The notes under the pieces were generated by a model, which had not been told where the DNA came from, searched no databases, and saw only the letters and a list, made by a program, of their open reading frames with translations. From positions 38,728,639 to 38,792,638 of the forward strand of contig NC_092698.1 of NCBI RefSeq assembly GCF_964275005.1: DNA of 64,000 nt, read 5' to 3'. Position numbers and translations under genes: made by a program. Of this stretch, positions 30,423 to 33,764 are shown piece after piece; within the stretch, counting starts at the first letter, position 1, and each line of letters starts with the position of its first letter. Source of the stretch: Diadema setosum (taxonomy: Eukaryota).

Positions 30423-30872
30423 GGTCCCAACGCTTTTAGTGAGGAACTCCTTCGGCGCCTGAATCTAAGCGGCAAGATCTACATGGTTCCCGCCTCTATC
30501 AAGGGTCTCTATGTCATCAGGTTCACAGTCACGTCTACCGAGACCACCGAGGATGATATCTTTAAAGATTGGCGCCTCATCCAAGGCACAGCGCGGGAAA
30601 TCTTCGTCACCACCGACATCGTGGCCAACGTGCCTACCCGCATGGCTTCCTGGCCAGGTGCGCTAAATCTCACTGGCGGCCCTAAACAGCCTCGACCCCA
30701 GAAACTGCGCTGGGAAAATAACAACGAACCAATCGAAAACGATGAAGAGAGGAAAGCGCCATCGGCGGGTGAAAACGGGGAGGAGGAAGAGGAGGAGAAT
30801 GAGGAAAGAGCAAGGAAGGATGTTGGACCAGTTCTCATAAAACCAGGCAAGCTGGAGGCCGTGGTTGCATGA
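30423..30872 (+). CDS. HDC: HDC terminal coding exon as read here: GPNAFSEELLRRLNLSGKIYMVPASIKGLYVIRFTVTSTETTEDDIFKDWRLIQGTAREIF... then a ~75-aa acidic tail (…NDEERKAPSAGENGEEEEEENEERARKDVGPVLIKPGKLEAVVA*)
   Basis: Acceptor is cctgtctcaaAG. The open frame runs to TGA at 30870-30872. The first ~70 aa match the human and fly HDC C-terminal catalytic region (IRFT(V/I)TS..TT.DDI.KDW). AATAAA lies about 310 nt downstream (~31186). Confidence 0.85.
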   Translation, partial: GPNAFSEELLRRLNLSGKIYMVPASIKGLYVIRFTVTSTETTEDDIFKDWRLIQGTAREIFVTTDIVANVPTRMASWPGALNLTGGPKQPRPQKLRWENNNEPIENDEERKAPSAGENGEEEEEENEERARKDVGPVLIKPGKLEAVVA

Positions 30873-33075
30873 AAGAGCATAGTTGCTTTAAAGCAGATGC
30901 ACCCCATTCCCCGTACGTTTTGTTTCATCATTCAACCCGTCAATTTTTACTACTGTCTTGTGCGTATTACACCTTGTTCTCATTTCTTTAAAACTACCGG
31001 CACAGTCCTTACAGGAGATTCCTATGCGCATTTAGTGTGCCTAACCTTGCTTAATGGATTTTCTTTTGCTACACATTGTCTGGCTAGAAATCTGTGAAGA
31101 CGGCCGTGTCATAATTATGATTTTCCGTTAGATGTGTGAATATCCATTCAACGCAACTGGTCAATTAAATTCTACTTTAAAAATAAATAAAATGCAATAG
31201 ACTGCGCTGATTGTGTCGTAAATATAGGAGTATCTTGTGTTGTTCTGTTTGTTTGTTTTGTACTAGAACGAGATGTTCTCTGCATAATAGGTGCCTACCA
31301 AATGGGAGTTTACTGAATATTATCCGTCTTTCAAAAACTGAGATGATAATTATTTTCTTGTAGTACAATACCAGGCGTGCATTTTATGTTTTCCCCTTTT
31401 ACTGTATATGCAACACCACTAGCACAATCTGTTATTTTAGATTTTTTTAGATGGACATTTAAGATGTCCGTTAGCCATTCCGCTTTTTCCTGCAGAGCAA
31501 ATCGCTTTCAGCGTGTGAGACTATCTATTCATTCATGCGTGTTGGTGTTTTATGTTCATTTTTATTTTTCGTATCTCCTAACTTTCTGAGAAACTGCTTC
31601 ATCAGTCTTTCAGTACATAAGTCATTTCTGGACGTGTGAATTTGATTTTTGGAAGACGAAAATGTTCTTCAAGAACTTGCAATAGTACTTATAAACAAGG
31701 AAATGATGCTTCAACAGGAATATACATGTATGTTTCACTTTCAGGTCTTTCTTACTCGCTACTCTTGGCCATATCATATATCATATACTGTATATGCATC
31801 CAATTTAAAGGTACCTTAAAAGCAATGAAAAGTAACAAACCGTCTAGAAAGTTAACGCCCCTAATGAAAATGACAATGATAGTGATGATGATAATAGTTC
31901 TTTAGCAATGTACTGAACATAATGGTAATAGTGATGACAACGTTGATAGTAATAGCAGATTTTGTCAGTTTTTTTTTTCCATTAAAATGTCGAGTGTTCA
32001 TGAAATGAAATCGATCATCGATTATTCTCGTTCTCAGTGTCATCGCAACAAGACATTCAATGTTAAACTGACAGGTTCGGGAGATATGCAGCATCATACT
32101 TTGTTAATTTGTTACATTTTCAGTTTTATATTAAAGGGTGTGTACAGTTCTGGTCGAGGTGAGGATTTAGCTTTTAATGTTTTGCGAGATATTCAGAAAC
32201 CACTCTATGAGATGTCAAAGAGCATGCAGTTCTAAGGGGTATCAAAAGTTTATTCGATGAAAATCGGTTTTGAAATGGCTGAGATATCCACAAACAAGGT
32301 GAAACAAAGAGATACTAATAAAGTTGTGGCATGTCGCCTTTAATTATTAGCACTTTTTTGGATATCTCAGCCATTTGAAAACCAATTTTCATCAAATAAA
32401 CGTTGAATCCTTCCTAAAATTACATGCTCTTTCATATTTCATAAGAGGCTTTTCATTATCTCACTTAGGAATGTTCAAAACATGAATCCCCACCTCAACC
32501 AGTACTGTGCAGTCCCTTTAAGCACCATTTCATTGCCTCTGCAAGCACTGCATTGGTGCACCATGAAGTTTCGTGGTTGTCGTGTTTGTGTCCACGTGAT
32601 TGTAAAATCTAGGTTGTTGTTTGTTTGTTTGTTTGTTTGGTTGGTTGTTTTTTTTTTTTTTTTTTTTTTTTGCTTTTACAGAATCCTGCAATATTGACTC
32701 ATTTATTTTGCAACACTGTTTCTTCAACCCACGTGTGCTTTATAGATGCAAATGATAGTGAATCTAGATGCTGACCTCGTGTCTCGTATGCATTTCGTTG
32801 CACTGATTCTTAAATAAAACCTTTACAAAACTGAACTGAAACTTATTTGGGGTAGAATCTTTACCCTCTTCATTGGTACTTGTACTTTTCCGGAAAGCGA
32901 GGTTATTCAAGATGCAAAAGACCACAATCGATTACAAACAAACACGCGTGTACACACATACTCTCACAAACACGAGATAAAGAACACACACGGAACATCT
33001 CCGGAACTATGAGAAGAAATTAAACATTGTCCATCATATTCATACTTGTATTGATGTCCTCATCTACACGCACAG

Positions 33076-33764
33076 GGCGCGAAAGGAAGGGCTGCCTCAC
33101 CAAGCTACTAAACTACCGGAAGAAGCTGGGTCGTCGCGCAATGTCCGAAGAAGCGGAGGGCTATGGCTACCCTTTCAACGCCTACTACAGCTTCGAAGAT
33201 ACCTCCAGTGGTTTGCCGTCCCCCTGTGAAGATGACCCGGGCTTTGAAATCGACGATGAGGTGTTTGGCAGCAACAATCACATCCAGAATGGCTGTACCG
33301 GCAGCGAGGAGGCTCAGGAGGAGCACGAGGAGGAGGAGGAGGAGGAGGAGGAGGAGGGGGAGGAGGAGGAGGCAGATCACAAGGAAGAAAACCATGACGA
33401 AGAGGCTAAACTACCCACTGGCCCTGGAACAGACGACACCGGCGACAATGCCACCAAGGACAACGAGAGAGAAGAAACCAATCCTGAGGTACAAAACACC
33501 GACCAGGACCTCGACCACAAGCTGCAGCCGAACGACATGGAGAATACCAACGCACTTCACACCAAGCTAGAGTGCGTGACGGCTAACGGCCAAACCCAGC
33601 CTGTTTCCATGGGAACGGAGAAACCCGTCAACGTTGGGGTGGCCAGCAAAGGCCGTTTCGGTGCGTTGAGTCAAACGAAAGAGAGCACATACAACGGTGT
33701 GGTTAACATCTGCCACTATCGCTCGACCAAGGGCTCCGTGGTGAGCCAGGGGGACGGGGAATAG
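33076..33764 (+). CDS. Candidate coding exon of unknown assignment, encoding an acidic low-complexity peptide: ...RERKGCLTKLLNYRKKLGRRAMSEEAEGYGYPFNAYYSFEDTSSGLPSPCEDDPGFEIDDEVFG...QEEHEEEEEEEEEEGEEEEADHKEENHDEE...*. It could be an alternative HDC 3' exon or a separate gene.
   Basis: The open frame spans 229 codons in AT-rich DNA. It has high GC3 and a strong polypyrimidine tract plus CAG acceptor immediately upstream (ttcatacttgtattgatgtcctcatctacacgcacAG|GG). It ends at TAG 33762-33764. The acceptor is phase 1, compatible with the in-frame phase-1 GT at 30657/30658 inside the HDC last exon. Confidence 0.45.

Follow-up and report, generated by a model that had tools for sequence, protein, structure and literature searches.

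A 64,000-nucleotide stretch of the Diadema setosum genome, referred to here as the window, carries a histidine decarboxylase (HDC) gene and, after a further 2.2 kb, a long open block of GC-rich DNA at 33076-33764. Does this block provide a C-terminus for HDC, and if so through which splice sites, or does it belong to an unannotated gene for an acidic protein? The block closes the coding sequence of the Diadema setosum HDC gene as its final exon and is not a separate gene; RefSeq already contains it.

The terminal exon of the Diadema HDC gene

The sequence-only reading had described the block as long, open and GC-rich, with a strong GC3 bias and a terminal TAG, set in stop-dense, AT-rich surroundings, and these descriptions hold. 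The interval 33024-33761 contains 246 codons without a stop, the longest such frame on either strand of the whole 64-kb window. GC3 is 0.70 in the block (0.68 without the Glu run) versus 0.59 in the remaining HDC exons, and the 2.2-kb spacer ahead of the block has an overall GC content of 0.36 and 26-48 stops per frame. Read from the acceptor, 33076-33764 comprises 2 nt, 228 codons and TAG; the encoded peptide is RERKGCLTKLLNYRKKLGRR... followed by an E-run, which had also been recognized.

The following features make up the gene and its 3' end:

3084-3114, 4524-4696, 7960-8073, 11750-11801, 21221-21291 and 23001-23141, plus strand: first six upstream HDC coding exons
24290-24433, 25198-25264, 27858-28020, 28760-28850, 29302-29400 and 30127-30228, plus strand: next six upstream HDC coding exons
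30423..30846, plus strand: next-to-last HDC coding exon (number 13 in the RefSeq-equivalent model, whose translation equals XP_072174382.1)
30847..33075, plus strand: GC-AG intron of 2229 nt, 36% GC and stop-dense, starting gcaagc and ending cacgcacag
33076..33764, plus strand: terminal HDC coding exon (2 nt, 228 codons and TAG), with a basic helix (RERKGCLTKLLNYRKK), an RRAMSEE site, GYGYPFNAYYSFEDTSSGLPSPCED, an acidic low-complexity middle and the terminal motif VASKGRFGALSQTKESTYNGVVNICHYRSTKGS
33295..33375, plus strand: Glu run, an in-frame 81-nt stretch of GAG/Glu codons bounded by GT...AG, with no pyrimidine tract
34317..34352, plus strand: two AATAAA hexamers about 550 nt past the TAG, likely poly(A) signals for the mRNA of the long isoform

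When the window exons are joined with the junctions 30846|33076 and 33294|33376, their translation is XP_072174382.1 (P0010) with 0 mismatches across 759 aa. The proposal that the block is a C-terminal coding exon of HDC, entered through the acceptor at 33076 and encoding a long acidic tail, thus agrees with the RefSeq protein. RefSeq lists this Diadema setosum protein of 759 aa under the name "aromatic-L-amino-acid decarboxylase-like"; a full-length query finds histidine decarboxylases as its best named matches, and by sequence similarity the Diadema gene is an HDC orthologue despite the generic name. The boundaries of the twelve upstream coding exons within 3084..30228 are GT-AG throughout, and the RefSeq-equivalent model has 13-14 coding exons ahead of the block. 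A search of window positions 1-4700 for the canonical first coding exon (MDAEEYRKRG, compare D. antillarum XP_071499735.1) did not find it.

The two D. setosum products differ by the Glu run. The RefSeq model splices out 33295..33375, which converts NGC-TGSEE...EEAD-HKE into NG-Y-HKE; in the genome the 81 nt are open and in frame, and the exons from 3084 to 30846 followed by 33076-33764 with the run retained give an uninterrupted ORF of 786 aa. The run is specific to Diadema, being missing from four other urchin loci (L001, L003, L007 and L008) and from Lytechinus. One of two D. antillarum models retains it and the other skips it.

We consider it highly probable that the explanation holds as a whole, that is, that the block is the terminal HDC exon, reached from a GC donor at 30846|30847 through the acceptor at 33075|33076, and that the product is a tailed enzyme. 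The GC junction is based on RefSeq (Gnomon) computational models together with cross-species conservation. Because exon and junction are already in RefSeq for D. setosum and three further urchins, the result carries little weight for genome annotation. The useful corrections are that a GC donor at 30846 replaces the GT at 30657 proposed earlier, that the gene is HDC, and that the tail ends in a motif found across the echinoderms.

The GC donor and the linker that precedes it

Exon 30423..30846 encodes the last part of the PLP-decarboxylase fold, up to ...TRMASWP, and a linker of 63 codons, and it closes with the donor CAG|GCAAGC at 30846|30847, eight codons ahead of an in-frame TGA. The junction in the model protein, ...VLIKP|G|RERKG..., requires this donor. 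The junction KP|G|RERK recurs in the RefSeq models of four urchin species, six models in all: XP_072174382.1 (D. setosum), XP_071492983.1 and XP_071499735.1 (D. antillarum), XP_041458283.1 (Lytechinus variegatus), and XP_054749749.1 and XP_063952115.1 (L. pictus). CAG|GCAAGC is the sole phase-1 donor that the window, L001 and L003 have at a homologous position, and it is identical in all three. GC donors usually offset the GC by an otherwise strong consensus, and this one matches CAG|GUAAGU at 7/9 positions.

The phase-1 acceptor at 33075|33076 had been predicted correctly and is the one used in the RefSeq model, but its polypyrimidine tract is moderate and not the textbook example that had been claimed: cacgcacag|GG is preceded by about 65% pyrimidines in -20..-4. 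Conservation of acceptor and frame in relatives had been proposed as a check. The acceptor, (c/t)ag|G(G/T/A) CGA GA(A/T) AG(G/A) AA(G/A), occurs at the same place and in the same phase in four genomic urchin loci (the window, L001, L007 and L008), upstream of it similarity among urchin loci vanishes, and the frame that follows is under purifying selection (see below). The intron has the features of a spliceosomal GC-AG intron: GC at +1/+2, a compensating consensus at -3..-1 and +3..+5, and an AG acceptor. The pre-mRNA would be spliced from 30846|30847 to 33075|33076, with phase 1 on both sides, which would create a Gly codon (G+GG).

The sequence-only reading had placed the donor further upstream, within the same exon:

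30657..30658, plus strand: proposed GT donor (CAG|GTGCGC), phase-compatible, unconserved and in no model

Splicing from this GT to 33076 would put a 229-aa acidic tail in place of the whole 70-aa tail of the unspliced frame. The GT does follow CCAG, is in phase 1 and compatible with the frame of the acceptor, matches 6/9 consensus positions, and lies where similarity to non-urchin HDCs fades, directly past ASWP. However, the GT serves as donor in no model and is Diadema-specific; L001 reads CGG|GCGCGC and L003 CCG|GCGCGC, each with a GC that lacks a donor consensus. The supposed end of similarity at this point holds for comparisons with other echinoderm classes, but the next 63 codons are conserved among urchins. 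This acidic, urchin-specific linker (GALNLTG...VLIKP) keeps its frame in L001, L003 and Lytechinus; the segment has only 3n indels across four urchin lineages, its start GALNL(T/S)G is conserved, and it is present in all six RefSeq proteins. Since the 63 codons are retained in frame and in the RefSeq protein, the GT at 30657 does not mark the end of the coding sequence; and since the annotated junction runs through 30846|30847, the 70-aa tail is not replaced by the acidic tail. The claimed exchange of 70 for 230 residues finds no support in the six models: about 63 residues of the short tail are kept and the last 8 (GKLEAVVA) are exchanged. We regard splicing from the upstream GT as very unlikely to explain the tail; a minor Diadema-specific isoform that uses it is conceivable.

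A conserved stop codon and the possibility of two HDC forms

Immediately downstream of the GC donor lies a short stretch that stands out from its surroundings:

30846..30872, plus strand: conserved island of GC donor, 8 codons (GKLEAVVA) and TGA
30912..30913, plus strand: candidate alternative phase-1 GT donor (CCC|GTACGT), 40 nt past the TGA
31164..31187, plus strand: ATTAAA/AATAAA, about 300 nt past the TGA

In the alignment of the window, L001 and L003 the island spans 29 nt, of which 25 columns are invariant, and its flanks cannot be aligned; the stop is TGA in all three. The contig L003, from an urchin other than Diadema, is the only actual transcript among the sequences examined. Its ORF is spread over 12 distinct exons of the window, which identifies it as a spliced HDC mRNA, and since this mRNA has the tail exon directly 3' of the HDC ORF, the tail exon belongs to HDC transcripts. 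The position of the conserved acceptor is preceded in L003 by AC and not AG, which shows that the contig was spliced there. In this mRNA the GC donor is unused, the TGA is kept, and the tail exon is joined from a site 34 nt past the stop. We reject a mini-intron from the GC donor to an AG within the contig: a length of 49 or 64 nt would break the frame, and one of 66 nt would remove conserved residues and has no pyrimidine tract next to its AG. The GT at 30912 would be the Diadema counterpart of the post-TGA junction in L003; its intron hexamer GTACGT also occurs at two bona fide donors of the gene (8073 and 29400).

These observations can be combined as follows. If the weak GC donor is left unused, translation would stop at the TGA and give a tail-less enzyme of 565 aa that ends in GKLEAVVA. 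Non-use could come about by reading through the site with polyadenylation near 31.2 kb, where the ATTAAA/AATAAA hexamers could provide poly(A) signals to an unspliced mRNA of the short isoform, or by use of the downstream GT donor as in L003. The choice of splice site would then set the ratio of tailed to tail-less HDC. The L003 contig, the conserved island and the poly(A) hexamers suggest such a switch between a short and a long isoform. The earlier idea of alternative C-termini gains indirect support from the conserved eight codons plus TGA and from a relative's mRNA that keeps the stop, but the mechanism would be use or non-use of the GC donor. GC donors are enriched among alternatively used 5' splice sites. 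Like known GC-AG introns with alternative 5' sites, this one pairs a strong CAG|GCAAG with a regular AG acceptor and is conserved between species; unlike in those cases, alternative use is deduced here from one relative's mRNA and the conserved downstream stop. That sea urchins converted the middle of a once single terminal HDC exon into this GC-AG intron, whose first eight codons and TGA are conserved, and that 5' splice-site choice thereby toggles between HDCs of about 565 and about 786 aa is a tentative proposal, which we hold to be possible but on balance doubtful; less likely still is a variant in which TGA read-through on an L003-type mRNA makes the tailed form.

Could the tail be reached in general by read-through or recoding of the in-frame TGA, on mRNAs that are spliced just past the stop to the same acceptor? 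The L003 mRNA reads ...KPGKLVAVLA-TGA-LSFPCCPSLCKR-RERKTCL..., so that the TGA, 12 sense codons and a 255-codon tail lie in a single frame. By chance such a relation is expected in one case out of three, and it is seen in one contig. All three urchins use TGA as the stop, and in L003 the next base is C. A TGA followed by C is the leakiest stop context; however, in the window and in L001 the stop reads TGA-A. The window frame continues without a stop for 74 codons past the TGA, and the phase-1 GTACGT donor lies 40 nt downstream, but the sequence past the TGA is unconserved between species, and in six RefSeq models the GC donor bypasses the stop. A search of Rfam for SECIS or other recoding elements in window 30300-36500 and in L003 (E<=1) returned none. 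We judge recoding to be a highly improbable route to the tail, and splicing from the GC donor remains our preferred reading.

Mammalian HDC is made as a 74-kDa precursor and processed to a 53-55-kDa enzyme; the C-terminal part of about 20 kDa directs ER translocation, and PEST-rich instability has been described for this region (PMC6359378). The urchin tail is likewise long and non-catalytic, begins past the same point of the PLP fold and has its coding sequence at the gene's 3' end, and in urchins tailed and tail-less forms are both conceivable. In contrast to the mammalian case, any urchin short form would come from splicing or termination and not from proteolysis. If real, the switch would be the equivalent, written into the gene, of the proteolytic step from 74 to 53 kDa in mammalian HDC. 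Histamine is reported to control metamorphic competence in sea urchin larvae (PMC3460732, PMC5838261); if the island marks a regulated switch, the urchin would offer a tractable system for the function of the non-catalytic HDC tail.

Conservation and character of the tail

The enzyme would consist of the PLP-decarboxylase domain, the acidic linker of 63 residues and a tail of 229 residues, 786 aa in all and 759 aa in the RefSeq model. In four comparisons with urchin loci the tail frame has pN of 0.24-0.26 versus a saturated pS of 0.71-0.80, so that the frame is under purifying selection. Short conserved motifs of the tail are the basic helix, an RRxSEE site and, at its end, SKGRFGALS..YNGVVNICH. 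The terminal motif is found in all five echinoderm classes, with ten invariant columns. In genomic contigs from a sea cucumber (L004), a brittle star (L005) and sea stars (L002 and L006), the catalytic end and the tail lie in one open exon, which starts at the same acceptor (ag|GG...) and runs from YVIRFTVTS...ASWP to GRFGAxS..Y(N/T)GVVNICH. The proteins P0005-P0009, P0015 and P0018-P0020 similarly have YVIRFTVTS...ASWP contiguous with ...GRFGALS..YNGVVNICH. This distribution indicates that the tail is ancestral to echinoderm HDC. The ancestral state would be the single terminal exon of sea stars, brittle stars and sea cucumbers, inside which sea urchins carry an intron.

An independent gene for an acidic protein, or an exon tied to some other upstream exon in the 31-33 kb interval, is the least probable reading, one to which we give almost no credence: prokaryote-style gene callers do list a stand-alone ORF (P0001-P0004) and the window has an ATG 7 codons 5' of the acceptor, but upstream ATGs are unconserved (the L007 and L008 ORFs begin MNYRKK), about 20 conserved residues (RERKxCLxxLxNYRKK) precede the first conserved Met, the 31-33 kb spacer is stop-dense as described above (26-48 per frame, 36% GC), in four other echinoderm loci, as in the L003 mRNA, the homologue directly adjoins the HDC catalytic domain, and the exon is already in XP_072174382.1. 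In five urchin loci the AG acceptor is the exact point at which conservation sets in, and together with the lack of a conserved start codon this leads us to reject the earlier suggestion of an unannotated acidic protein.

An AlphaFold model of the tail has low confidence throughout (mean pLDDT 47.6), with a single helix at residues 5-16, and intrinsic disorder is predicted for the tail. A Pfam scan of the tail gave nothing above threshold; sub-threshold matches (e.g., CCSAP and CDC45) fall on low-complexity sequence and were treated as compositional. Word-indexed searches with the tail by itself returned 9 proteins and missed the tail-bearing RefSeq proteins; such searches therefore under-report, and a full-length query is needed. 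In an exhaustive HMMER search of representatives with the tail, true matches were confined to echinoderm HDCs. Summed matches to P0131 (a 2836-aa bacterial repeat adhesin with 22 weak stretches) and to P0132 and P0133 (ankyrin repeats) were spurious.

In its position the long acidic tail resembles the extended tails that HDCs of other animals have. The likeness to mammalian and fly HDC tails noted from the sequence stands for position, but there is no detectable homology of the tails themselves: the HMMER matches are limited to echinoderms, and a profile-profile comparison (hhalign) of echinoderm versus protostome HDC tails gave a probability of 2%, which is not significant. For vertebrate HDC tails, which were compared by eye, no significant similarity to the urchin tail is seen. 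Protostome HDC tails read FGMSLILSNVPMSPKFINGSFAALFD ... RLSPRRR ... KQGSLDSKIEEI ... NG..xCxHCGH. They share with the urchin tail the position, a disordered character with short motifs, and NG-x3-4-(I/L)C-x-H near the C-terminus, and a deep homology of echinoderm and protostome tails that goes beyond position would be a lead to follow.

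A terminal coding exon of HDC

The GC-rich open frame at 33076-33764, 3' of the histidine decarboxylase (HDC) exons, is a real signal at the sequence level, far beyond chance. The frame is open for 246 codons (33024-33761), the longest stop-free stretch in all six frames of the window, and from the acceptor at 33075|33076 (cacgcacag|GG) it reads two nucleotides, 228 codons and a TAG. GC3 is 0.70 in the block versus 0.59 in the other HDC exons, and the 2.2-kb spacer before it has an overall GC content of 0.36 and 26-48 stops per frame. The encoded peptide with its Glu run is as the sequence-only reading described it; calling the pyrimidine tract 'textbook' was an overstatement, as it is only ~65% pyrimidine.

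A full-length BLAST query assembled from the HDC exons matched the D. setosum RefSeq protein XP_072174382.1 (759 aa, 'aromatic-L-amino-acid decarboxylase-like [Diadema setosum]') at 95% identity and 100% coverage, and the next named matches are histidine decarboxylases from other echinoderms, hemichordates, amphioxus and protostomes. Spliced along its HDC exons, the window translates to XP_072174382.1 with zero mismatches; the + strand therefore carries the HDC locus of D. setosum.

The hypothetical spliced C-terminus, used as a query, returned nine proteins. Four of them, at 51-55% identity, are open frames of other urchins that comprise only the tail; the remaining five run directly from the last part of the HDC catalytic domain (YVIRFTVTS...ASWP) into a tail whose final residues are ...SKGRFGALSxTKESTYNGVVNICH. 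In an alignment of all five echinoderm classes, this terminal motif has ten invariant columns. In comparisons with four further urchin loci, pN of the tail frame is 0.24-0.26 and pS, which is saturated, 0.71-0.80. When the window is compared with three urchin sequences (L001, L007 and L008), the AG acceptor is kept, conservation begins exactly there and is lost 5' of it, and no conserved start codon is found for the block. The contiguity with HDC, the selection on the tail, the conservation from the acceptor and the lack of a conserved start together identify the block as authentic HDC coding sequence; a separate gene is rejected on the same grounds. The sequence-only reading was right about the exon, about its acceptor and in its guess of a link to the HDC C-terminus: the block is HDC's genuine terminal coding exon. 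RefSeq already annotates it, and the alternative of an unannotated acidic protein was wrong.

Sea stars (L002, L006), a sea cucumber (L004) and a brittle star (L005) are represented by genomic contigs in which this part of HDC is a single terminal exon. It starts at the same acceptor as the penultimate coding exon of the window (exon 13, 30423-30846; ag|GG...), which is the G(P/K/Q)(N/D) acceptor, and is open without interruption as far as the stop that follows the NICH motif. The extra intron is found only in urchins, which suggests that the echinoid lineage gained it (or that it arose there by intronisation) within what would ancestrally have been a single terminal exon. The metagenome-labelled ENA assembly ERZ26222911 contains both an urchin-type split-exon HDC locus (L001) and a sea-star-type single-exon locus (L002), and thus DNA from at least two echinoderms.

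The donor of the urchin intron

The sequence-only reading joined the block to a phase-1 GT after CCAG at 30657|30658. This GT is present, but with either GT or GC allowed at the donor, and AG at the acceptor, a single junction, CAG|GCAAGC at 30846|30847 to 33076, reproduces XP_072174382.1, which reads ...RARKDVGPVLIKP-G-RERKGCLTKLL... across it:

30847-33075, + strand, 2229 nt: GC-AG intron; window translation equals XP_072174382.1

The KP|G|RERK junction is also present in five more RefSeq models from D. antillarum, L. variegatus and L. pictus. We enumerated all phase-1 GT and GC sites in the window, in L001 (genomic, from another urchin) and in L003 (mRNA, likewise from another urchin); the only site common to all three is CAG|GCAAGC, eight codons 5' of the stop, and the proposed GT is CGG|GCGCGC in L001 and CCG|GCGCGC in L003. 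The true site has GC instead of GT, which is why the donor was proposed 189 nt away from it. The 63 codons between the two sites (GALNLTG...LIKP) are open in four urchin lineages, with indels in multiples of three. Given the junction in XP_072174382.1, the conserved GC donor and these open codons, the acidic tail is appended to nearly all of the '70-aa tail' it was thought to replace; only GKLEAVVA is exchanged.

The intron contains an inverted repeat (32206-32443; 89-nt arms, 81% complementary, 60-nt loop). It resembles a hairpin of the MITE type, and its Rfam matches, to miRNA-precursor families of plants, stay below threshold. Downstream of it, at ~32610-32672, is a (TGTT)n/poly-T tract.

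A possible switch between short and long isoforms

L003 is a Logan contig from run SRR6173504. Its 561-aa open frame maps onto 12 separate window exons, which identifies it as a spliced HDC mRNA. In the stretch L003:2170-2240 (window counterpart 30846-30913) the GC donor is unused, and the mRNA reads ...KPGKLVAVLA-TGA-LSFPCCPSLCKR-RERKTCL... In place of the AG|G(G/T/A) of genomic loci, L003 has ...AAAC|GA, which shows that splicing joined the conserved acceptor to a donor 34 nt 3' of the stop. In a three-species DNA alignment, 25 of the 29 columns of the island CAGGCAAGCTG..GGC.GTG.T.GCATGA are invariant, flanked by poorly conserved acidic codons 5' and unalignable sequence 3'. Constraint thus appears to act on the eight codons and the TGA that follow the GC donor.

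Taken together, the island of donor, eight codons and TGA, the urchin intron and the one TGA-retaining mRNA suggest a switch between short and long isoforms. In the simplest reading, use of the GC donor would give the tailed enzyme, and its non-use a 565-aa enzyme ending in GKLEAVVA, either through read-through into the intron and polyadenylation at ATTAAA/AATAAA (31164/31182) or through a downstream GT donor, for which CCC|GTACGT at 30912|30913 is the window candidate. An alternative explanation is that the tailed form arises by read-through of the TGA, since in L003 a single frame runs from HDC through the TGA and 12 sense codons to the end of the tail. However, this is less likely, as a search of window positions 30300-36500 and of L003 found no SECIS or other recoding element and the in-frame relation is documented in a single contig only. 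Whereas the terminal exon was already known from RefSeq, the urchin-specific intron in an ancestrally single exon, the conserved island and the TGA-retaining mRNA are mildly new.

Features of the tail and its surroundings

A Pfam scan found no family above threshold in the tail, and the AlphaFold model (mean pLDDT 47.6) has a single helix at residues 5-16, GCLTKLLNYRKK. Among 1.84 billion representatives searched exhaustively with HMMER, true matches were confined to echinoderm HDCs, and the three other hits were repeat proteins. The HDC tails of protostomes terminate in NG..x(I/L)CxHCGH, those of vertebrates in CSxQCGxQLPCCPLQA. Profile-profile comparison of echinoderm with protostome tails was not significant, and the parallel with the C-terminal region of mammalian HDC, which is processed from 74 to 53 kDa (PMC6359378), is therefore positional and conceptual, a likeness for which homology is not demonstrated.

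Conserved motifs of the tail
basic helix
33130-33150, + strand: RRAMSEE (GRRAMSEEAE)
GYGYPFNAYYSFEDTSSGLPSPCED
DDEVFGSN
terminal motif

The RRxS(E/D)(E/D) motif is kept in urchins, a sea cucumber (KRRARSEDI, RRARSED) and brittle stars (LRRAQSEDV, RRAQSED). RRAMSEE resembles a target site of basophilic kinases with acidic residues after it, and is a candidate phosphorylation site. The Glu run is specific to Diadema and absent in other urchins. At 33295-33375 its GAG codons form an 81-nt in-frame GT...AG segment without a pyrimidine tract that is spliced out as an 'intron' in XP_072174382.1. One D. antillarum model retains the run and a second one skips it; its removal may represent an exitron, or an artefact caused by polymorphic repeat length.

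At the 5' end, the D. setosum model opens with a coding exon (3084-3114) for MTTDSYKLNGG, and one D. antillarum model begins with the canonical HDC N-terminus MDAEEYRKRG. An exon for the latter type was not found in window positions 1-4700; a first exon further upstream, or an alternative one, may therefore lie beyond the window. Minus-strand open frames at 49284-49514 and 60196-60414 encode pyruvate-dehydrogenase-kinase-like peptides, including DEGGGIPKSEIDKLFNYMYSTAP; with the family assigned by eye, a PDK-family gene would therefore lie tail-to-tail downstream of HDC. Long (ATT/ATC)n and (ACT ATT)n microsatellites occupy 30000-30110, in the intron just 5' of exon 12 (30127-30228).
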